A stretch of DNA of 64,000 nucleotides from an uncultured Bacilli bacterium (lineage in GTDB: Bacteria; Bacillota_I; Bacilli_A; RF39; UBA660), in NCBI GenBank assembly GCA_934182615.1, contig CAKPRO010000001.1, positions 78,197-142,196 of the forward strand. The letters run 5' to 3'. A program made the translations under genes and the position numbers. Below, in pieces: positions 23,704-59,600 of the stretch. Each line of letters starts with the position of its first letter. The stretch's first letter is position 1. The notes beneath the pieces were generated by a model. The model was given only the letters and a program-made list of their open reading frames with translations. It did not search any database and was not told where the DNA came from.

Positions 23704-23920
23704 AAAAAAATAAGATAGCCAAAGGACGAATAAATATCCGCGGTACCACCTTATTTTATGTAACATACACTCATTAAGTTATAACGTAACAACCGTCTAT
23801 ACCTATTAGATATAAAAGCTCCAGAACCATTTATAATAACTTTCATTATCTATTTCCACCAACCATAGACTCTCTATAAACTAATATTATTACTCTTTCC
23901 TTCATCGCATTACGAAATTA
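23704..23920 (-). promoter_or_regulatory. T-box riboswitch leader (probable Met specifier) with terminator/antiterminator, controlling dut-metG
   Basis: Minus strand carries the canonical T-box sequence AATAAGGTGGTACCGCGG (plus 23735-23752), then a terminator helix and a U-run ending at the dut start. Stem I candidate has a GA motif (GCGATGAAGG), an AGAGA box and an AAUGA specifier-loop candidate. The leader is preceded upstream by a TTGTAA-17-TGgTAAAAT promoter. Confidence 0.6.
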
Positions 23921-33042: not shown

Positions 33043-34701
33043 TCATTTATATTCTATAATACTATCTCCTACTAAATCAATCAAATCATCAATAGAAGAT
33101 TTTTCTTTCTTATTATTATCATTATTTTCTATTTCCTTAACACTATATTTAATTCCTTTTTTTAAATCATCAATATATTTATTTTTAATAACCTTCCATT
33201 TATCATTATCAACAGCAACAGCATAAACTCTATTACCAAAAAGTCTTTCTAATAATTTCTCAGTAACTTCTAAATTACTATTAATTCTACTTGCTGTAGA
33301 TGGATAATTACAAGATAAAATTACATATTGACTTGCTCCAACCACTATATTAGAATCCTTAAGTAACCCAGAAACGACAGAAAATTCTTCATCATCAATA
33401 TAATCATCTAAACTATTCCATCTTAATTTAAACTCTTCTAATACACTCTTTGAAGCTAAAGCCAAAGAATTATTAACTCTAATTTCAACTTGTTCATCAG
33501 AAATAGAACTATCTTTTATTTCCCGGGAAATATTTTCATTATTTTGGGAAATATTTTTCTCTTTTTTCTCAATTATTTCCCGGGAAATAATTTTTTCACT
33601 ACTTTTCTCATTATTTACCATTAGATTTCCAAATTTTAAATCAGAATATTTAAGAATTGAAATCATAAATATAATTGAACTATGATTAGAAATCTTTATA
33701 GAATTTTGAACACCATTAAGGCTTTCTATTAAATCATATAAATCTTTATCATTATATTTATCAGAAACCAATTTGATATAATCGTTTTTAGTAGAAATAC
33801 TTGATAAAATATTAGCATTTTTATACAAAATAACATCTTTAAGAAAAATAAGCATTTCTTCAACAAACTTATTAATGTCTTTACCAGACTCATCTAAATA
33901 ATCAACAAATTCTATTAATTTAACCTTATTATTATTTTTAATATTATCTAATAATGTATAAAGTTCTTCATATGAAACCGAACCATTAACTTTATAAACA
34001 TCATCGATAGTAATATTATCATTAGAATAAGCTACCAATTGATCTAAAAAGTTTATAGCATCTCTCATTCCACCATCAGATAATCTTGCTATTTCATATA
34101 ATGCATCATCATCAATAGTAATATCTTCAAGATTAGAAATTTCTCTAAGTCTTTCCACTATTTTTTTATCATCAATCTTAGAAAATCTAAATTTTTGACA
34201 TCTTGAAGCTATAGTTAATGGTATTTTATGAGGCTCAGTCGTAGCTAAAATAAATATAACATGACTAGGAGGTTCCTCCAAAGTCTTTAAAAGTGCATTA
34301 AATGCTTGTGTTGTAAGCATATGAACTTCATCTATTATATAGACCTTATATTTAGAATTACTAGGAACTAAATTAATTTTATCCCTTAATTCTCTGATTT
34401 CATCAACACCATTATTCGAAGCAGCATCTATTTCAACAATATCATTACTATTCAAATAATTAAGACAATTATAACATTTCCCACATGGGTTACCATCAAC
34501 TAAATTTTCACAATTAACTAATCTTGCAATAATTTTAGCAATAGTAGTCTTTCCCGTTCCTCTAGGTCCACAAAAAAGATAAGCATGGGACACTTTTCCA
34601 GAAACAATAGCATTTTTAATAACAGTAACAACCTCTTCTTGTCCATAAACACTATTAAAATCAACAGGTCTATATTTTCTATACAAAGCTAAATATCCCA
34701 T
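33043..34701 (-). CDS. dnaX: DNA polymerase III subunits gamma/tau
   Basis: GPRGTGKTT Walker A, CGKCYNC zinc module and an SRC motif (TIASRCQ); 552 aa. The linker region contains two in-frame Noc-binding palindromes. Confidence 0.95.
   Translation of the reverse strand: MGYLALYRKYRPVDFNSVYGQEEVVTVIKNAIVSGKVSHAYLFCGPRGTGKTTIAKIIARLVNCENLVDGNPCGKCYNCLNYLNSNDIVEIDAASNNGVDEIRELRDKINLVPSNSKYKVYIIDEVHMLTTQAFNALLKTLEEPPSHVIFILATTEPHKIPLTIASRCQKFRFSKIDDKKIVERLREISNLEDITIDDDALYEIARLSDGGMRDAINFLDQLVAYSNDNITIDDVYKVNGSVSYEELYTLLDNIKNNNKVKLIEFVDYLDESGKDINKFVEEMLIFLKDVILYKNANILSSISTKNDYIKLVSDKYNDKDLYDLIESLNGVQNSIKISNHSSIIFMISILKYSDLKFGNLMVNNEKSSEKIISREIIEKKEKNISQNNENISREIKDSSISDEQVEIRVNNSLALASKSVLEEFKLRWNSLDDYIDDEEFSVVSGLLKDSNIVVGASQYVILSCNYPSTASRINSNLEVTEKLLERLFGNRVYAVAVDNDKWKVIKNKYIDDLKKGIKYSVKEIENNDNNKKEKSSIDDLIDLVGDSIIEYK
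33517..33599. promoter_or_regulatory. Two Noc-binding-site palindromes (TATTTCCCGGGAAATA) inside the dnaX coding sequence
   Basis: Exact 16-mers at 33517-33532 and 33584-33599, translated in frame as ...ISREI... / KIISREII in the tau linker. A TTGGGAAATAT half-site lies between them. Confidence 0.7.
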
Positions 34702-35177: not shown

Positions 35178-35203
35178 AATATCTTCTCCTCTATGTTCCA
35201 CGT

Positions 35204-35968
35204 GGAACATAAAAAAATATTATCATAGTAATTATCAAATTTCAAAATATTATATTTTAAATTAAACAAAACATTTAAAAATCTCATGTTCCACGTGAAA
35301 CATTGATTGTTTTTTTATAATTAAATTTATTATTAATAATCATTAACAACAAAAATATAATAATAAAAGAATATAATTCAAAGATTACAAAAAAAATATA
35401 AATAGCTTTTTAAAATAAATAAAAATTGTTGATGAATTCATGTTCCACGTGAAACATTAAAATAATCATTTATCTAAAGCAAGTTATTATTAATTTCAAA
35501 TATACAAAAAATAATAATTAAAACATATAAAAATAAAATACGTAATAATTTAATTTGAAAATTATATAGGAAAAAGCTGTTGATAATCTATGTTCCACGT
35601 GAAACATAGAATTTACTTTCAAATTTTATTTAATATTTAATACATAAAACATTTCTAATCAACATAGTATTAAAAATTATTTCTATTAAATAATTTTTTT
35701 TATGGCTAATTTAATATATTTTTTACATATATTAATTAACTGTTGATAACCAATGTTCCACGTGGAACATGAGTTATTATTTTATAATTAAATTTGTTAT
35801 TAATAATCATTAATGAATAAAATACAATAATAAATATATATAATTCAAAAATCACATAACAAATATAAACGACTTTTAAAAATAAATAAAAAATTGTTGA
35901 TAACCAATGTTCCACGTGGAACATGAAGTTAGTTATCTAATTATTATTGCTATGTTTCACGTGAAACA
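35204..35968. repeat. Tandem array of seven parS (ParB/Spo0J centromere) sites, ~150-bp period, each unit with a DnaA-box-like TTATCAACA
   Basis: 16-mers at 35204-35219, 35287-35302, 35441-35456, 35591-35606, 35754-35769, 35908-35923, 35953-35968. Three are TGTTCCACGTGAAACA (exact B. subtilis consensus), three are the symmetric TGTTCCACGTGGAACA, one is fully palindromic TGTTTCACGTGAAACA. Spacers are paralogous AT-rich ~130-bp units ending in TGTTGATAA(CC). Confidence 0.8.
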
Positions 35969-36007
35969 TAGTATAATTTTAAATCTAATTTATCAACAGG
36001 CATAAAA

Positions 36008-36086
36008 AAAGATACACACACTAAATAAATGTTAAAGCTGCTGACTTCCGTCCCTGACTTGGTTCCATCATTTAATGTTGTATCAA
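36008..36086 (-). ncRNA. ffs: Small (4.5S-type) signal recognition particle RNA
   Basis: Minus strand contains CCAAGUCAGGGACGGAAGUCAGCAGC, matching the conserved SRP domain IV (AGGUCAGGUCCGGAAGGAAGCAGC). 5' and 3' ends can pair; a U-run lies at 36001-36010. A perfect promoter sits upstream. Confidence 0.6.
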
Positions 36087-36091
36087 CAAGT

Positions 36092-36233: not shown

Positions 36234-36249
36234 TATTTCCCGGGAAATA
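36234..36249. promoter_or_regulatory. Noc-binding-site palindrome TATTTCCCGGGAAATA
   Basis: Exact 16-mer within an extended AATTATTTCCCGGGAAATAA, downstream of gyrA. Confidence 0.65.
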
Positions 36250-38890: not shown

Positions 38891-40810
<1,920 letters not shown>

Positions 40811-40826
40811 CTATCACCTTCCTGCA

Positions 40827-41927
40827 TCAAATTATTTCCCGGGAAATAATTTTACCATTTTCTATTCTATAAACATTAGCTTTATTTCTCACATTTTTAT
40901 CAATATTTTCAATATCCGTAGTAGTAACTATCGTTTGAATATCATTATCTAAATATTTAATTACCTTATTTCTCTTATCAATATCTAATTCACTAAATAT
41001 ATCATCCAAAAGTAAAATAGGCGTATCAGACAAAACATCCGTAAATAATTTAACTTCTGCTAACTTAAGAGCAAGTACAGCACTCCTTATTTGTCCCTGT
41101 GAACCATATAAAGATAAATTCTTTCCATTCAAATCAAAATAAAAATCATCTCTATTAGGTCCAATAAAAGTAATCTTATACTGAATTTCTCTTGATAAAT
41201 TACTTTTAAGTTTATCTTTAAATAAATTATTATCTAAATTACTAACATTAGAAGTATATATCATCTTAAGTCCTTCTAATCCTGTAATAGAACTAAATAT
41301 ATCATCTATATATTTATTAACTAAGTCTACATATTTCCTTCTAAAATTATAAATAACTATTGATAAACCAATATATTTATCATTAAGAATATCTAAATAA
41401 TTCATATCACTCTCTTTATTAATATTAATAATCTTCAAAAATTCATTTCTTTGACGTAAAACTAAATTATAATTATTTAAATTTGCTAAATAAATCTTAT
41501 TAATTTGACTAATTTGAATATTAAAGTATTTTCTTCTACAAGATGGACTATCTTTAAATATTCTAATACTATCACTACTAAAAAGAATAACATTCATTTT
41601 AGAAATATAGTCACTTAATTTTTTGATCTCTTTTTTATTTATCTTAACAACCTTACCATTCTCATTAATTAATAGTTCAAGTTCATCATAAGAACCATTA
41701 TAATCAACAATTCCTTTAATCATTGAATATCTACTATTAAAATTAATAAGATTCTTATCACTAATAGATAAAAAAGACTTCGTAACAGCAAGTACATAAA
41801 TAGATTCTAGTAAATTAGTTTTTCCTTGAGCATTATCTCCTATTATAATATTTAAATTATTATTAAATTCTAATAAAATATCATCATAATTACGATAATT
41901 TTTTAAATAAATTTTTTGTAATTTCAA
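40827..41927 (-). CDS. recF: DNA replication and repair protein RecF
   Basis: GDNAQGKTNLLE Walker A and an ABC signature; 366 aa. The last eight codons (KIISREII) and the TGA stop are supplied by a Noc-binding palindrome. Confidence 0.95.
   Translation of the reverse strand: MKLQKIYLKNYRNYDDILLEFNNNLNIIIGDNAQGKTNLLESIYVLAVTKSFLSISDKNLINFNSRYSMIKGIVDYNGSYDELELLINENGKVVKINKKEIKKLSDYISKMNVILFSSDSIRIFKDSPSCRRKYFNIQISQINKIYLANLNNYNLVLRQRNEFLKIININKESDMNYLDILNDKYIGLSIVIYNFRRKYVDLVNKYIDDIFSSITGLEGLKMIYTSNVSNLDNNLFKDKLKSNLSREIQYKITFIGPNRDDFYFDLNGKNLSLYGSQGQIRSAVLALKLAEVKLFTDVLSDTPILLLDDIFSELDIDKRNKVIKYLDNDIQTIVTTTDIENIDKNVRNKANVYRIENGKIISREII
40833..40848. promoter_or_regulatory. Noc-binding-site palindrome forming the recF 3' end (part of a 29-bp repeat identical to 53707-53735)
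   Basis: CAAATTATTTCCCGGGAAATAATTTTACC at 40827-40855 is identical to 53707-53735. Confidence 0.7.
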
Positions 41928-42053: not shown

Positions 42054-42509
42054 TTATTTTTCAACGGTTTTTCTCATAATTCCATTTAAATATTTTTCTA
42101 TCTTTATACACTTCGTAATTTGATTATCAATCGTAGTATAAGGTACCTTAATATTCATCTCTTTACCATTATCAAAATATATTTTTGTACCATTACTTTC
42201 TTTAACATATCTAGTAATATTATTATAAGCAAGCCATATACATTTCTTAGAACTAGGAGTACATGTAGGAAAGAAAATAATCATATTATAAGAAGATACA
42301 ATAATAGGAGTCTTAATATAATAATTAAAAATATCAATAACAAATTGCCTCTGAATATTATAAGAATTACCATAAAAATTACACCCATATTTAAGTAATT
42401 TAAGACAATCAATACTCAAATAAAAATCCTTATTCTTCTCCACAACATAAGTACCATATCCATTAGAAGTAAAGCACAAAACATCATCAGTAAGAATATA
42501 ATTTCTCAT
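42054..42509 (-). CDS. comK: ComK family protein (competence transcription factor family)
   Basis: Alignable to B. subtilis ComK across the conserved core: CNFYGNSY / CRFFGSSY; KTPIIVSSYNMIIFFPT / KPPIMVDPSNQIFLFPT; FDNGKEMNIKVPY / FSNGKTMELPISY. The start is assigned to the ATG at 42509, which has a GGAGAGGGGGA RBS. Confidence 0.7.
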   Translation of the reverse strand: MRNYILTDDVLCFTSNGYGTYVVEKNKDFYLSIDCLKLLKYGCNFYGNSYNIQRQFVIDIFNYYIKTPIIVSSYNMIIFFPTCTPSSKKCIWLAYNNITRYVKESNGTKIYFDNGKEMNIKVPYTTIDNQITKCIKIEKYLNGIMRKTVEK

Positions 42510-42707
42510 AAAATCCCCCTCTCCACATATAAAAATATGTACCATGTATTAAAGCATATAATCATGTCGAATTTTATCAAAATATGTCGTAAATTATCAA
42601 AAATTTTCCTTTTCTTAACATTTCTATCATCAAAATTACTGTTTTATCACAAAAAAAATAGATAAAAGAATCAAATCCCTTATCTATTAAACAAATATAA
42701 ATCAAAA

Positions 42708-43832: not shown

Positions 43833-43974
43833 CCTCTTTCTTTTATTATTTATTTATTATATTATTATTATTATGCTGTGGATATTGTGGAAAACTCACC
43901 TTTACCCTTGTTTTATATACTTTTACTTATCCACAATACCTGTTGATAACTTCAAACTTTTCCACTATCAACAA
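43833..43974. other. oriC part 2 (dnaA-dnaN spacer): DnaA-box cluster plus AT-rich unwinding element
   Basis: Perfect TTATCCACA at 43927-43935. Variants: ATATCCACA (43878-43886, reverse), TTTTCCACA (43887-43895, reverse), TTATCAACA (43941-43949, reverse), CTATCAACA (43965-43973). A pure A/T run at 43840-43875 lies next to the dnaN start. Confidence 0.8.
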
Positions 43975-45439: not shown

Positions 45440-45580
45440 CAAGTTATCCACAACTTATCAACAATATAATACCATATAAAATAAGACTTTAAAAGACTTT
45501 TCCACAATTTTTGTCAATTTTTGTTGTCAACAGTCAACAGCTTTACTTTTCCACAGCCCTGTGGATATTGTGGATAAATA
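45440..45580. other. oriC part 1 (upstream of dnaA): DnaA-box cluster
   Basis: TTATCCACA at 45445-45453 and 45569-45577 (reverse); TTATCAACA at 45455-45463; TTTTCCACA at 45498-45506 and 45547-45555; ATATCCACA at 45560-45568 (reverse). Confidence 0.8.
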
Positions 45581-52807: not shown

Positions 52808-52845
52808 AAAATGTAACCAAATGGGTTACATTTTTAGTGTCAAAT
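52808..52845. terminator. Bidirectional hairpin terminator downstream of mutM
   Basis: ATGTAACC-aaatg-GGTTACAT with flanking T/A runs. Confidence 0.45.
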
Positions 52846-53672
52846 TATTGTAAAGTTTGGCACTTAGGACAATAATAAGTACCTCTACCACCAACTTTAA
52901 TCTTTTCAATTTTCGTATTACAAATAGGACAATTATTTTTATCCTTACCATGAACAAATAATTCATTTTGAAATAAACCGTGAACTCCATCAACAGAACT
53001 ATATGTTCTAATAGTAGTTCCTCCTTTTTCAATAGCGGCTTCTAAAACTTTTTTTGTATATTTAATTATATTTTCAGCTTCTTCTTTAGTAATTAAATTA
53101 CATTTCTTCAAAGGATTAATTTTAGATAGAAATAAAATTTCATCAGCATATATATTACCAATACCAACGATTATATTTTGGTCAAGTAAAACGCTCTTAA
53201 TAGGTAATTTCTTTTTCTTATATTTATCAAGTAAATATTCACTAGTAAGATTATCATCCCAAGGTTCAAGACCAAGCTTCACTAGTGGTCCTATCTTATC
53301 AATATCTTCTTTTTTTATAAGATACATTTTACCAAATTTTCTAGTATCCATATACCTAAGTTCGCTACCATCATCTAAGTCAAAAATAACATGTTCATGT
53401 TTATTAATATCATCATCTTTAGTCTTAAAAAAGTATTTACCTTCCATTCTAAGATGTGACAGAAGATAATAATCGTCTAAATCAAACAGCAAGAATTTAC
53501 CTCTTCTTTTAACATCATTAATACTTTGATTAGCAGTCTCTTTAATAAATTTCTCTTTACTAGGATATGCAATAATATTATCCCATAAAACTCTAGTTCT
53601 AATTATTTTTTTATTATTTAATCTTAACTTTAAAGATTCTTTAACAGTCTCTACCTCTGGTAATTCTGGCAT
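52845..53672 (-). CDS. mutM: Formamidopyrimidine-DNA glycosylase
   Basis: MPELPEVE N-terminus with catalytic Pro2 (start assigned to the ATG at 53672), an H2TH domain and a C-terminal CPICNT...CPKC zinc finger. Confidence 0.9.
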   Translation of the reverse strand: MPELPEVETVKESLKLRLNNKKIIRTRVLWDNIIAYPSKEKFIKETANQSINDVKRRGKFLLFDLDDYYLLSHLRMEGKYFFKTKDDDINKHEHVIFDLDDGSELRYMDTRKFGKMYLIKKEDIDKIGPLVKLGLEPWDDNLTSEYLLDKYKKKKLPIKSVLLDQNIIVGIGNIYADEILFLSKINPLKKCNLITKEEAENIIKYTKKVLEAAIEKGGTTIRTYSSVDGVHGLFQNELFVHGKDKNNCPICNTKIEKIKVGGRGTYYCPKCQTLQ

Positions 53673-53711
53673 ATATATCACCTCTTTTATTACTTAAATT
53701 ATTTTCCAAAT

Positions 53712-53727
53712 TATTTCCCGGGAAATA
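53712..53727. promoter_or_regulatory. Noc-binding-site palindrome immediately 3' of polA (29-bp copy identical to the recF 3' end)
   Basis: CAAATTATTTCCCGGGAAATAATTTTACC at 53707-53735. Confidence 0.7.
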
Positions 53728-53734
53728 ATTTTAC

Positions 53735-56329
53735 CTATTTAGCCTCATACCAATTATTTCCCAACTCTATATCTACATCGAGTGGTACCTTTAAATCAAA
53801 TACATTAGTCATAGTATTATATACAATCTCTTTAACTTTATCAATTTCATCATCGTATACATTAAATATTAATTCGTCATGTACTTGAAGAATCATCTTA
53901 CTCTTAATATTTTCTTTTTCAAATATTTCATCAATTTCAATCATAGCTTTTTTCAAAATATCTGAAGCTGACCCTTGAACAGGAGTATTAAGAGCCATTC
54001 TTTCACCCATATTTCTAATCATATAATTAGTACTCTTTAATTCATCAATAACTCTCTTTCTATTCATAATAGTTTTAACATAGCCATTCTTTTTAGCAGT
54101 TTCAATTTCTTTATCCATATAGTCTCTAACACCTGGATAAGTATCAAAATATTTATTAATAAATTCTTTAGCCTCTTTAACTGGAATACCTAAGTCTTCA
54201 GCTAAGCCATAACTACTAATACCATATAAAATACCAAAGTTAACAGCTTTAGCCTGCCTACGCATATTTTTAGTAACACCTTCTTGTGGTACTTTAAATA
54301 TATCCATAGCGGTCTTAGTATGAATATCTATACCTTCATTAAAAGCATTTATTAAATCATTAACTCCTGATAAATGAGCAAATACTCTAAGTTCAATCTG
54401 TGAGTAGTCAGAAGATAAAATAACACTATTACTTTCTGGAATAAAAGCCTTTCTAATAAGTCTACCATACTCACTTCTCATCGGAATATTTTGTAAGTTA
54501 GGTTCAATTGAAGATAACCTACCAGTTCTTGTTAAAGTCTGTGTATAAATAGTATGTATTTTACCATCATCACTAATACAGTTAATCATACCATCAATAT
54601 AAGTAGAATAAAGCTTAGTAAGTGCTCTATATTCTAAGATACAATTAACAATAGGATAATCCACTAATTTTTTAAGAACATCAGCATCAGTAGTATATCC
54701 CCCACTTTTATTTTTCTTTCCATAAGGAAGATTAAGCTTTTCAAATAAAATTTCACCAAGTTGTTTAGGAGAATTAATATTAAATTCACATCCAGCATAA
54801 TTATAAATATCCTTAGTAATAAGTTCTAATTTAATTTTAATTTCTTCTCCCATTTCTTTTAAAATATTTTTATCAACTCTAATACCTTCAATTTCCATCT
54901 TAGCAAGTACCTTTGCTAGAGGCATTTCAATATTTTCAAATAGATAAATATTATCTTCTTCTTTCATCTTATTATATAGTTCTTTCTTTGAAGTATAAAT
55001 AAATTTAGCTTTAAGAATAGCTCTCTTACTAGCTTCTTCATCACTTACTACTTCTTTCTTATCATAAATAGGAATATTAAAATTCATATTATTAGCAAGA
55101 TAAGCAATATCATCTTTAGTTTCGTAGTTAAGTAAATAAGCACTAATCATAGTATCAAAAACAATCTTAGGTACTTTAATACCATATCTATTAAATATTA
55201 CAATTAACTTCTTATAATCATAAGTAAATAAATTAAATTCAGTATTTAAAACATTATAATTATTTTTTAATATATCAAAAGGAATATAGTAGGCCAAATT
55301 ATTATTATATAAAGAAATACCAAGTAATTCAGCATCATGATAATTACCAATAGTAGTATCTAACCAGATAGCGGTCTCTTCATTAATTTTAACTTCATTA
55401 ATATCAGTAATGATTTTAAAGTTATCTATACTACTATGTTCTTCTTCCTTTTTATCTTCTTCAATTACATCATCTAATTTTTTAAGAAGAGAATGAAAAC
55501 CTAATTCTTTATAAATATTAGTAAGTTCTTCAATATTACAATTTTTATATTTTAAATCATCAAAACTAGCATCAAGAGGAACTTCTCTATATATTGTAAC
55601 TAAATCTTTACTATAATAAGCATCTTCTTCCCCATCAATAAGTTTAGTTTGTGTAGCACCTTTAATATTATTAATATTAGCATAAATATTTTCAATAGTG
55701 GTATATTCACTAACTAATTTAATAGCTCCTTTTTCTCCAATACCACGAACACCAGGAATGTTATCTGAAGCATCTCCCATTAAAGCCTTTAAATCTATCA
55801 TATGAATAGGTTCAAAACCATATGTCTCGTTAAAAGTTTTTCTATCCATCATAATATAATCTTTAGTTTTAAGTAATTTAACCGTTGTCTCATCACTAAT
55901 TAACTGAAGTAAATCTTTATCACTACTTACAATTAAAGCCTCATATTCTGGATCTTTCTCACACCACATAGATACAGTACCAATAATATCATCGGCTTCA
56001 TAACCGGCACATTCTAAATATTTAATTCCCATTGCTGCAAGTATTTTCTTAGCAATTGGAAATTGTACCTTTAAGTCATCAGGAGTTTCTTTTCTTCCAT
56101 CTTTATATCTTTCATATTTTTCATGTCTAAAAGTCTTACCTATATCAAAAGCCACCATCATATATTCTGGTTTCTCATCATTAACAATTTTATTAATCAT
56201 ATTAACAAAACCATATACTCCATTCGTAGGAAATCCATCTTTATTTCTCATTATATTACCTGTATAAAGAGTAGCATAATAGCTTCTAAATAAAAGATTA
56301 TTACCATCTACTAAAACTATTTTTTTCAT
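53735..56329 (-). CDS. polA: DNA polymerase I
   Basis: 864 aa with a 5'-3' exonuclease domain, a 3'-5' exonuclease-like domain and family A polymerase motifs (DYSQIELR, QVHDEL). Confidence 0.95.
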   Translation of the reverse strand: MKKIVLVDGNNLLFRSYYATLYTGNIMRNKDGFPTNGVYGFVNMINKIVNDEKPEYMMVAFDIGKTFRHEKYERYKDGRKETPDDLKVQFPIAKKILAAMGIKYLECAGYEADDIIGTVSMWCEKDPEYEALIVSSDKDLLQLISDETTVKLLKTKDYIMMDRKTFNETYGFEPIHMIDLKALMGDASDNIPGVRGIGEKGAIKLVSEYTTIENIYANINNIKGATQTKLIDGEEDAYYSKDLVTIYREVPLDASFDDLKYKNCNIEELTNIYKELGFHSLLKKLDDVIEEDKKEEEHSSIDNFKIITDINEVKINEETAIWLDTTIGNYHDAELLGISLYNNNLAYYIPFDILKNNYNVLNTEFNLFTYDYKKLIVIFNRYGIKVPKIVFDTMISAYLLNYETKDDIAYLANNMNFNIPIYDKKEVVSDEEASKRAILKAKFIYTSKKELYNKMKEEDNIYLFENIEMPLAKVLAKMEIEGIRVDKNILKEMGEEIKIKLELITKDIYNYAGCEFNINSPKQLGEILFEKLNLPYGKKNKSGGYTTDADVLKKLVDYPIVNCILEYRALTKLYSTYIDGMINCISDDGKIHTIYTQTLTRTGRLSSIEPNLQNIPMRSEYGRLIRKAFIPESNSVILSSDYSQIELRVFAHLSGVNDLINAFNEGIDIHTKTAMDIFKVPQEGVTKNMRRQAKAVNFGILYGISSYGLAEDLGIPVKEAKEFINKYFDTYPGVRDYMDKEIETAKKNGYVKTIMNRKRVIDELKSTNYMIRNMGERMALNTPVQGSASDILKKAMIEIDEIFEKENIKSKMILQVHDELIFNVYDDEIDKVKEIVYNTMTNVFDLKVPLDVDIELGNNWYEAK

Positions 56330-56414: not shown

Positions 56415-56677
56415 TATTTCCCAGGAAATAATTTATTAGTTCGAATCTACGTTTCTCACTATCATTAAAGCCTAATGTCTTTAATGAAAAATATGAAGCC
56501 TATAAAAATAGTCTTCATATTTAACAACATTTTTAATTTAGGTATTATTTTATATAATATTTATTCATTAAAATAACAAAAAACACTTTAAATAAAGACT
56601 ACAGGCTTTATTTAACAGTGAGAGATTACAAGCTCGAACTGAAAAAAAATATTTCCCAAATTATTTCCCGGGAAATA
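56415..56677. repeat. REPIN-like composite: Noc site + REP-like copy b (plus orientation), ~105-bp spacer, REP-like copy c (inverted) + Noc site
   Basis: TATTTCCCAGGAAATA at 56415-56430 (1 mismatch); REP-like 56438-56483; inverted REP-like 56594-56641; TATTTCCCGGGAAATA at 56662-56677 plus an ATATTTCCCAAA half-site. Lies in the polA-polC intergenic region. Confidence 0.65.
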
Positions 56678-56681
56678 TTTT

Positions 56682-59600
56682 CTAAAATAAACTAAGTTGA
56701 CTAGTCTCAGGCATACCTTCAAATATACCCATCGTTCTCATCTTATCAATTAAAGTTTGAGATACCTTACATCTAGTTTGAAAATCCTCAATACTAATAA
56801 ATGGAGCTCTTGCAGCCTCTTTTTCAATATTCTTAGCAACAACATCACCAAGACCATCAATAGCTCTAAATGGAGGAATAATAGTCTTATCATCTTCTAC
56901 TGTAAAGATAGAACCCTTACTTTTATATAAATTATAAGGAGCAACCTTAATACCTCTTGCAGCCATCTCTAAAGCAACCTTTAAAGATTCAGATATACCA
57001 TTCTCTTTATTAGAGGCATCAAAACCCTTATTCTCAATTTCAATAATAGAGTTCTTAATACTATCATATCCTCTAATCATAGCCTCAATATTAAAATCAG
57101 TAGCCTTAGTAGTATACCAACTAGCATAGAAGTATACAGGCATATGTACCTTATACCAAGCAATTCTAAAAGCACTTATAACATAAGCAGCAGCATGTGC
57201 TTTAGGGAACATATACTTAATCTTATGACAACTATCAATAAACCAAGATTCAATACCAGCCTTTTCCATAGTTTCTTTATGCTTAGCCCAAGTTTCTGGA
57301 TCTTTACTAGCCTTACCCTTACGTACAAATTCCATTATTTTAAATGCCTTAATAGGTTCAACACCATGATACATCAGATAAACCATTATATCATCACGAC
57401 ATCCAATAACATCTTTAAAAGGAACAATATTATTCTTAATAAGTTCTTGTGCATTACCAAGCCATACATCAGTACCATGAGATAATCCAGATATCTTAAT
57501 AAGTTCCGCAAAAGTAGTAGGTTTAGTTTCCGCTACCATAGAAATAGTAAAGGGAGTACCAAACTCAGGAATACCAAGAGTACCAGTATCACACATAATT
57601 TGTTCATTAGTAACCCCAAGTACCTTAGTAGAAGTAAATATACTCATCGTATCCTTATCATCAAGAGGAACCTTAAGAATATCCGTACCAGATAATTCTT
57701 GAATTAATCTAAGTTGTGTAGGATCAGAATGACCTAATATATCAAGTTTAAGTAAATCTTGGTCAATAGCATGATAATCAAAGTGTGTCGTTCTCCATGC
57801 ACTAGTAGGATCTTCAGCAGGAAATTGAAAAGGTGTAAAGTCAGATACATCCATATAATCAGGAACAACAACAATACCACCAGGATGCTGACCAGTTGTT
57901 CTCTTAACACCAGTACACCCCATCGCCAGTCTCTCAATTTCACAAGATCTCTTATTCATAATACCCTTATCTTCAAAGTATCCCTTAACAAAACCAAAGG
58001 CTGTTTTTTCCGCAACAGTACCAATCGTACCAGCCCTATAAACATTATCAACACCAAATAAAACTTTAGTATATTCATGAGCAGACGCTTGATTCAAATC
58101 CGAAAAGTTAAGATCAATATCAGGAACCTTATCAGCATTAAACCCAAGGAAAGTAGCAAATGGCATATCTTGCCCATCTTTATACATATGCTCACCACAA
58201 TTAGGACAAATCTTATCAGGCAAATCAAATCCACTAGAATAAGTAGCACCTAAATCATTACCATTATCATCTTTAAAAATACTATTTTTACATTTAAGGC
58301 ATCTATAATGAGCAGGAAGAGGATTAACCTCAGTAATACCCATCATCGTAGCTACAAATGAAGAACCAACACTACCTCTTGAACCAACCAAGAAACCTTC
58401 ATCATTAGAGTGTTTAACAAGTCTTTGAGCAATCAAATAAATAGGATCAAATCCCCCACCAATAACACCACCTAGAGACTTTTTAATTTTTTTATCTAGT
58501 GCCTTATCAGTCATTTCACCATCTTCTTCACTCCAATGTTTTTTAACATAATCACTAACAAGCATCTTAACCTCATCAAATCCGTTAACTAAAGTATTAT
58601 GTAAATTTTCAAATAACTTAGAATCAAGTTCATCATCACTAATATTAGGATTATCTTCACTAATAATTTCTTTCCAGCATTTGTAGACAATATCACCATA
58701 TAATTCCTTAGATATTCTCTCTTCAATATTATGTGGTAAATCATCACCATACCATTCTTTAGCCCTATCAAATACTAAGTCAGTAACCACTCTAGGACAA
58801 TCCAAATAAGACTTACCATCATCACTCTTAACTCTAGGTGAAAAAGGAATACCACCAGTATCAATAATAACCTCAATCTCATCTACCATATCAAGAACTT
58901 TATTAGTATTAGTAACAACAATATCATAAGCAAGTTCTTCTCCTAGAAAAGCAAAATCATTAAGCATTTCCTCAGTAGTTCTAAAGTGCTGTGAAGGAAT
59001 ACTCTTAATACTACTCTTAGCAAGAGGATGTCTACCACCACCAGGAACCTTCTGATTAACAATAATTTCTCTATATATCTTATCTTCCCTGCTAAAATGA
59101 TGAACATCCCCAGTAGCCACGATAAGCTTACCAGCCTCACGAGTAGCATTAATAATCTTCTTAATATGTTCCTTAATTTCATTAACATCTTTAAAATCAC
59201 TAGTCTGAATCAAATGGTCATATACTTCCGGAGGCTGTACTTCAACATAATCATAGAAATTAATAATATTAGTAAGTTCTTCTCCCTCTTTACTTCTCCC
59301 CTCAATAAAAACTTCGCTTTCGTAGCAGCCACTACCAATAATAAGACCTTCTCTAAGTTCATTAAGTTTACTTCTAAGAATTCTTGGTGTCTTATATAAA
59401 TAAGTAGTATTAGCAAGAGAAATAATTTTAAATAGATTCTTAAGTCCTGTCTTATTAAGAGCAATAGCATTAAAATGATAAGTTCTACCAAATTTATATA
59501 TTTCATCTTTTGGAATAAGTTTCTCTAAATCACTTATCTTCTCAAAGTTCTGTGTAAATAATTTACCAAGCATCTTGTAGAAAACTAAAGCAGTACCTTC

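Follow-up and report, generated by a model that had tools for sequence, protein, structure and literature searches.

Two places in the window (the whole stretch of DNA analysed here, 64,000 nt long, in whose numbering all coordinates are given) carry the same 29-bp sequence, one at the 3′ end of recF and one in the 3′ flank of polA. At recF, the repeat is translated as the end of the protein. In a preliminary description, the identity of the two copies was taken as a sign of recent spread or replacement at gene 3′ ends. The locus therefore raises the question of whether the repeat is a newcomer that has altered RecF, or DNA that is kept for its own sequence and is translated only as a by-product. 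The two copies were compared with the other sites of the window, with the corresponding loci of relatives and with known binding sites.

Results

The 29-bp repeat and its core

The 29-mer CAAATTATTTCCCGGGAAATAATTTTACC has exactly two plus-strand copies in the whole window (Table 1). Their identity stands as first described, but the start of the first copy had been placed one base low, at 40827; the correct position is 40828. A chance origin of the whole 29-mer was ruled out, with zero matches in shuffled windows.

Noc-binding sites (NBS) were reportedly described by Wu et al. in 2009. The consensus palindrome is quoted as ATTTCCCGGGAAAT (PMC3020112), and the 16-bp form TATTTCCCGGGAAATA is described elsewhere (PMC8429893). 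The core of the 29-mer is identical to this form at 16 of 16 positions, and the repeat contains an NBS, as the preliminary description had recognized. In addition, 24 of the 29 bases are the extended consensus palindrome of the lineage, AAATTATTTCCCGGGAAATAATTT, in which the core is flanked by AAAT and ATTT (AAAT-TATTTCCCGGGAAATA-ATTT). In 23 distinct sites, at loci chosen regardless of their flanks, AAAT and ATTT are conserved at 85–87%. Farther out, 184 copies taken from other genomes, among the matches listed, have flanks near background.

The two window copies have five further bases in common. Five or more common bases are found in 3.4% of unrelated 24-mer pairs, so that the surplus is weakly beyond chance (about 3%), and chance is a plausible origin for it. 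The surplus counts against a plain binding-site reading. One of the five bases is the G of the polA TAG stop codon, a position at which strains are polymorphic (TAA or TAG); other strains read TAAGTAAAAT or TAGATAAAAT there. According to these comparisons, the 29-bp identity is more than chance, but most of it is due to the common 24-bp consensus site and not to common descent of the two copies.

Distribution of the sites in the window

The NBS consensus is matched at 16 of 16 positions by both 29-mer copies and by four further sites of the window, and one more site has a single mismatch (Table 1). When up to three mismatches were allowed, eight sites were found, against 0.36 expected. The hexamer CCCGGG occurs six times in the window, each time inside a perfect NBS. 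The six perfect sites and the one with a single mismatch all lie within 33.5–56.7 kb, at most about 12 kb either side of dnaA; neither an NBS nor a parS was found in the remaining window (about 41 kb free of NBS) or in the 10 kb beyond either end. Rfam gave no match at the NBS sites, and its sole matches in the window are a T-box leader and a small SRP RNA gene.

Table 1. Positions of the sites, genes and other features of the window
Feature	Position	Strand	Remark
T-box leader	23719–23914	−	upstream of metG-like gene
NBS, perfect	33517–33532		in dnaX linker, translated NISREIK
NBS, perfect	33574–33589		in dnaX linker, translated EKIISREIIE
parS, seven canonical (ParB sites)	35194–35968		between tadA and SRP RNA gene
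SRP RNA gene, small	36003–36089	−	between parS array and NBS downstream of gyrA
NBS, perfect	36234–36249		105 nt downstream of gyrA stop; kept in L223 and L224
gyrB	38891–40807	−	start 19 nt past recF stop
recF	40827–41927	−	C-terminus GKIISREII* encoded by NBS
29-mer, copy 1	40828–40856	+	inside recF 3′ end; 24-bp palindrome 40829–40852, 16-bp NBS core 40833–40848 (perfect)
ComK-family ORF (PF06338)	42054–42545	−	between dnaN and recF
dnaA	43975–45345	−	flanked by DnaA-box clusters 43877–43949 and 45444–45577
fpg (mutM)	52845–53672	−	probable ATG at 53672, preceded by ribosome-binding site AAAGAGG
Degenerate extra half-site	53700–53707		reads GGAAAATA on − strand; most other strains GGGAAATA
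29-mer, copy 2	53707–53735	+	62-nt polA–fpg spacer; 24-bp palindrome 53708–53731, NBS core 53712–53727 (perfect)
polA	53735–56329	−	TAG stop 53735–53737, one base within 29-mer
NBS, one mismatch (CCCAGG)	56415–56430		polC–polA spacer
NBS, perfect	56662–56677		4 nt after polC stop; with half-site 56650–56657 and T run (56650–56677)

The dnaA region, with its two clusters of DnaA boxes, is probably the oriC around which the sites cluster. On both sides of dnaA the GC skew is negative and most genes are on the minus strand, and neither switches there. The missing switch counts against the explanation proposed below, in that the exact position of the origin is not proven. One possibility is that polA and polC are oriented head-on to replication; the other is that the origin is located elsewhere than the DnaA boxes suggest.

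The seven parS sites of the window read ATGTTCCACGTG(A/G)AACAT and are spaced about 150 bp apart. The spacers are AT-rich and non-repetitive, and tandem-repeat detection over the parS region of the window did not identify them as repeats. The presence of seven true parS sites together with NBS in one window indicates that both kinds of ParB-family site coexist, and this genome appears to use both. A DnaA-box-like sequence, TTATCAACA, precedes three of the parS sites (35578, 35741 and 35895). The number of parS copies varies by strain, with eight in L001 and seven in L002. The longest ORF of tadA begins with MFHVEH (35193–35210), which is the first parS read in frame; the true start is probably further in, at MMDVDK.

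In relatives, the gyrA–tadA spacer holds tandem arrays in which each unit has one parS and one 24-bp NBS. The array of L097 (2363–3702) has 10.7 units of 125 bp with 91% identity, and that of L006 (18–435) has 6.7 units of 62 bp; more such arrays are present in L007 (2263–2947), L051 (1117–1553), L085, L084, L102 and L054. parS is also found in 72 of the 120 blocks with the NBS 24-mer among the matches listed. By a crude search of the literature, no description of alternating ParB/Noc site arrays was found.

The copy at the end of recF

The recF gene ends with ENGKIISREII followed by TGA, and the stop codon occupies 40827–40829. The 29-mer takes in two bases of the Gly codon, all of KIISREII (eight codons) and two of the three stop bases. 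The RecF tail is an NBS read in frame, as had been proposed.

The site is carried by 114 of the 120 best RecF homologues. The residues IISREI are present in 110 of the 120 (from 98% down to 65% identity), four end with GKLFPGK*, and the remaining six are variants. GKLFPGK* corresponds to AAATTATTTCCCGGGAAATAA translated one base out of frame by a 1-nt shift upstream, and this shifted reading with the NBS retained was seen in the DNA of L010 and L047. Thus, the site is retained while the peptide differs. Across the relatives compared, the C-termini of RecF follow the site DNA and its frame, ending with IISREI(I) or GKLFPGK*. Where the site is decayed or absent, the protein ends differently, with KIVSHEIV or with NGKIERS*.

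Relatives chosen by protein similarity alone, among them L223 and L224, were compared as well. The DNA of L223 (78% RecF identity) does not differ from that of the window between AATGGT and the gyrB ribosome-binding site, the NBS included. In L224 (68% RecF identity), the recF end reads GGTAAAATTATTTCCCGGGAAATAATTTG and then TGAGCAGG. The reverse complement of the 29-mer, GGTAAAATTATTTCCCGGGAAATAATTTG, is therefore base-identical at the recF end in the 78% and 68% relatives, and the codons TCC and CGG within the site are also identical in both. This identity indicates that GGTAAAATTATTTCCCGGGAAATAATTTG is ancestral at recF. The recF gene of L224 continues for eight codons (CEQEGDINE*) and overlaps the gyrB ATG. 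The stop codon, which had been counted as part of the repeat, is not an ancestral part of it; the TGA of the window is the result of a later small change just after the site.

These results give no support to a recent spread or replacement. Relatives with as little as 68% RecF identity have the recF copy without a single base changed, all strains seen and a sister species have the polA site, and the G by which the polA copy reaches the full 29-bp identity is itself a TAA/TAG strain polymorphism. Identical DNA in relatives, together with a peptide that varies by frame, points to selection acting on the DNA and to an old site at recF.

In L225, which is represented by a single short contig, the site at the recF end (approximately 2085–2110) is decayed to TGTTTCACATGAAATA, a parS/NBS hybrid, and the peptide is KIVSHEIV. 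The left half of TGTTTCACATGAAATA matches a parS half-site perfectly; the right half is between parS and NBS.

The recF–gyrB junction

No gene lies between recF and gyrB, as noted before; 19 nt separate the stop and the start, and nothing is encoded there. The proposal that the repeat explains the loss of a recF–gyrB spacer is not borne out by the relatives. In more distant relatives, with a RecF C-terminal region at most 56% identical, the site is absent and RecF ends with NGKIERS* or similar. Most of these site-less relatives have the gyrB start 1–13 nt past the end of recF; in a few, recF extends as far as the gyrB start or beyond it. Since these junctions are equally tight or overlapping, the tight junction is the ancestral state. 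The site amounts to about 24 bp added between GGNAAAATT and the gyrB ribosome-binding site, and the junction is even tighter where the site is absent.

The ComK-family ORF between dnaN and recF is kept in L223, L224 and L225. It occupies the place that yaaA/rlbA has in Bacillus.

The polA and polC copies

The second 29-mer is located at the polA 3′ flank as described, but it does not start right after the stop codon, because the C at 53735 is the third base of TAG. polA and fpg are separated by 62 nt. In all strains of the species and in a sister species, whose PolA is 91% identical over its last 300 residues, the sequence is stop-GTAAAAT-NBS-ATTT-GGGAAATAATTT. The extra half-site of the window at this flank differs by a G-to-A change from that of most other strains.

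The block is present in relatives at 90% PolA identity or above. At 80–83% PolA identity, two relatives (L147 and L151) have the NBS, the half-site and a T run, and four (L148, L150, L155 and L179) have a compact junction, AAGTAG followed directly by GTGATAAGAATG of fpg. Relatives at 75% PolA identity or below have, in nearly all cases, the compact polA–fpg junction or unrelated spacers. This presence and absence among the 80–83% relatives indicates that a block of about 55 bp, NBS plus half-site, was gained or lost at the polA–fpg junction. It is the sole evidence favouring some copying-in, and it counts against the plain site reading. The half-site accompanies the NBS in just 17 of 271 distinct copies among the matches listed.

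After the polC stop, the NBS, half-site and T run (56640–56690, minus strand) form a 16-bp stem with a folding energy of −15.8 kcal/mol (z = −3.8). This NBS may double as the polC terminator. In one strain, L127 (18375–20677), an AraC-type regulator and a TraG/T4SS-coupling-protein gene follow polC in place of polA, as if a mobile element had inserted or the region had been rearranged; this strain still has the NBS after the polC stop.

The sites across relatives

In a scan of a genome collection, the 24-mer was found in at least 120 blocks of 8 kb, from about 115 species representatives. Among the matches listed, nearly all of the blocks belong to uncultured gut 'Bacilli', 'Tenericutes' or CAG genomes. 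In these at least 120 blocks, the genes found are dnaX (72), tadA (66), gyrA (61), gyrB (37), recF (25) and dnaA (19). The recurring dnaX, tadA and gyrA neighbours indicate that, throughout the group, the sites are concentrated in one and the same part of the chromosome.

The listed blocks have 258 copies of the 16-mer, 171 intergenic and 87 in ORFs. The 87 ORF-internal copies, among the matches listed, are translated as ISREI (46), YFPGN (37) or FPGK (4). FPGK is always located at a stop codon, as TAA is part of the extended site. In DnaX, the variable linker (approximately residues 345–400) holds 41 copies in the blocks of GTDB relatives among the matches listed, and these are translated according to frame as IISREII (32) or NYFPGNN (9). 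The two dnaX sites of the window (33517–33589) belong with this set. The DnaX linker is hypervariable and has one or two NBS copies; the DNA site stays while the adjacent protein varies freely.

The presumed binding protein

Neither among the window's ORFs of at least 120 aa nor in the 10 kb adjoining each end was a ParB-family or noc gene found, and the missing local noc gene counts against a Noc-type reading. L010, the closest relative in the genome collection, has the same DUF87–dnaA arrangement as the window; thus, a noc gene would have to lie elsewhere. Noc-like genes were found in relatives (L058, L069, L080, L083, L089 and the P0148 locus). In relatives, the gene order is rnpA-yidC-jag-mnmE-mnmG-rsmG and then the ParB-family gene, often with an NBS directly upstream. 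The P0148 locus, from an abundant relative, also encodes ParA and a ParB with the parS-type residues R-T-N-G.

The Noc-like proteins of relatives score 273–280 bits on the nucleoid_noc model (TIGR04285, NCBIfam), against 168–193 bits on the general ParB model. The scores are below the nucleoid_noc cut-off of 315 bits because the C-terminal quarter of the model is unmatched. The specificity for NBS is set by Q173, K179, K184 and R201 (PMC7383237). The corresponding pattern, Q-K-(N/S/T/A/G)-R with Q173, K179 and R201, is present in 119 of 120 Noc-like homologues. A long low-complexity insert is located between the DNA-binding domain and the C-terminal domain in the Noc-like proteins of L058, L069, L080, L083, L089 and L209 (10001–11038).

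The Noc-like proteins align with the solved Noc structures only from residue 25–27 onwards; their residue 4 is matched to residue 25 in the Noc of Geobacillus and to residue 27 in that of B. subtilis. Just 15–20 residues precede NRFQPR in 114 of 120 Noc-like homologues; about 40 residues precede it in B. subtilis Noc. The stop-to-stop ORFs of the noc-like genes start just 2–8 codons upstream of the Met, and thus there is no room for an N-terminal extension. These features indicate that the Noc-like proteins of relatives lack the N-terminal amphipathic membrane-targeting helix. The helix is needed for nucleoid occlusion in B. subtilis (PMC8429893), and in S. aureus, Noc controls replication (PMC5540599). 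The absence of the helix in relatives argues against the classical nucleoid-occlusion mechanism, which may not apply here.

Discussion

Proposed explanation

We consider that both copies of the 29-mer are, with a probability of about 0.8, Noc-type binding sites in a dense cluster that extends about 12 kb either side of dnaA. The identity of the site, its clustering, its deep conservation as DNA regardless of frame and the Noc-like genes of relatives are read directly from sequence. We infer that this organism also encodes a Noc-like protein, which would bind the sites.

In this uncultured low-GC lineage of gut Bacilli, the preferred site is the 24-bp palindrome, maintained by selection as a DNA sequence. 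Since the constraint is on the DNA, the sites would persist where sequence is cheap to constrain. Such places are the DNA after stop codons (polA, polC and gyrA), the variable or disordered linker of DnaX and the C-terminal tail of RecF, which is dispensable and whose final residues would be a by-product of the site. By analogy with B. subtilis and S. aureus, a dimer of a Noc-like ParB-family CTPase would nucleate on each palindrome. From the known behaviour of the family, the nucleated dimer may then close as a CTP clamp and spread over several kb, and the spread clamp may mark an origin-proximal domain. The complex could act in nucleoid occlusion, in the control of replication as in S. aureus, or in the organization of the origin.

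More tentatively, and with clearly less confidence than in the identity of the sites, the protein may form a second origin-centred CTP clamp, which acts with ParB on a composite parS/NBS centromere, or bounds it, and does not act in nucleoid occlusion. The helix-less protein of relatives, the packing of the sites at oriC and the one-for-one parS/NBS arrays of many relatives suggest this possibility. If it is true, the recF, polA, polC and dnaX sites would be outposts of the origin domain.

Alternative explanations

A small mobile or copy-and-paste repeat, REP- or MITE-like and recently inserted at gene 3′ ends, would account for the five bases that both copies share outside the consensus palindrome. 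It would also fit the presence or absence of the 55-bp block of NBS and half-site at polA–fpg among relatives at 80–83% PolA identity, and the like module after the polC stop. This explanation is improbable, in view of the recF copy. That copy is unchanged at 68% RecF identity, the site is fixed at recF in all close relatives and is found in nearly all (114 of 120) of the best homologues, and the base that completes the identity at polA is polymorphic among strains. Moreover, no common unit longer than 24 bp is evident, as the flanks of the 184 listed copies are near background farther out, and the half-site is seen in only 17 of the 271 distinct copies listed.

It is still less probable that the palindromes are primarily terminator hairpins at gene ends and resemble the NBS only secondarily. 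Three copies lie 4–105 nt past stop codons, and the polC copy with its half-site folds into the stable stem given above, followed by a U run. The recF (−6.9 kcal/mol, z = −0.45), polA (−7.5 kcal/mol, z = −0.5) and gyrA (−3.2 kcal/mol) copies, in contrast, fold no better than shuffled sequences, and a terminator scan of 33–46 kb reports none of the copies. An intrinsic-terminator identity was rejected, as the stem-loop with a U run was found in the polC copy only. The recF and dnaX copies are within coding sequence, and recF–gyrB and polA–fpg look co-transcribed, with short spacers that carry ribosome-binding sites. Terminators are conserved in structure and not as an identical 16–24-mer across about 115 species, as is seen among the matches listed. 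Equally doubtful is another binder of the palindrome, such as a regulator of replication or repair, or a restriction-modification component acting on CCCGGG. The neighbouring genes all function in DNA replication or repair (recF, gyrBA, dnaX, polA and polC), and no noc gene was found in the window. Against such a binder, the NBS is matched in full, the Noc-like proteins of relatives have the Q, K and R residues, and their genes often have the site directly upstream. The sites of relatives alternate in tandem arrays with parS, to which the sister protein ParB binds, and sites are located at 3′ ends and inside genes, not at promoters.

Significance

The finding itself is modest: the binding sites are of a known type, and the gut bacteria that have them are an unstudied group. 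It provides a clean natural case in which the sequence of a protein is imposed by a DNA-binding site: in many species, one 24-bp sequence is translated, in RecF and DnaX, as IISREII, LFPGK* or NYFPGNN. For annotators it is a warning that a short "conserved peptide motif" at the end of a protein can be the shadow of a DNA site. The 24-bp site, the helix-less Noc-like protein, the origin-packed sites and the parS/NBS arrays may be relevant to studies of the CTP switch of the ParB family and to chromosome organization.

Comparison with known systems

The sites of the window have the identical 16-bp palindrome TATTTCCCGGGAAATA in common with the NBS of B. subtilis and S. aureus. The site occurs in several copies, which in the window and the 10 kb on either side of it are all found around dnaA; this would fit an enrichment towards the origin as in these species. 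A ParB paralogue that has Q173, K179 and R201 is presumed to bind in both cases. In contrast to the B. subtilis and S. aureus sites, the consensus extends to 24 bp, and several copies are within coding sequence and are kept in different frames. The density in B. subtilis is roughly one NBS per 50 kb, whereas here a 23-kb cluster around dnaA has approximately one site per 3 kb. Unlike B. subtilis Noc, the proteins of relatives appear to lack the N-terminal membrane-targeting helix and have the long low-complexity insert.

The NBS belongs to the same site family as the parS of ParB/Spo0J, with 12 of 16 positions matching, and it resembles parS in clustering near oriC and in being a probable loading site of a CTP clamp. 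parS can also lie inside genes, as one does within spo0J of B. subtilis. The sites differ from parS at half-site positions 2 and 7, which are of the NBS type, and the window has its seven parS in a separate array. Like repeats of the REP/BIME type, the sites are short palindromes just past stop codons, present or absent at orthologous junctions. Unlike these repeats, they have no common sequence outside the binding consensus, their positions are conserved across species, and some copies are located in frame within genes.
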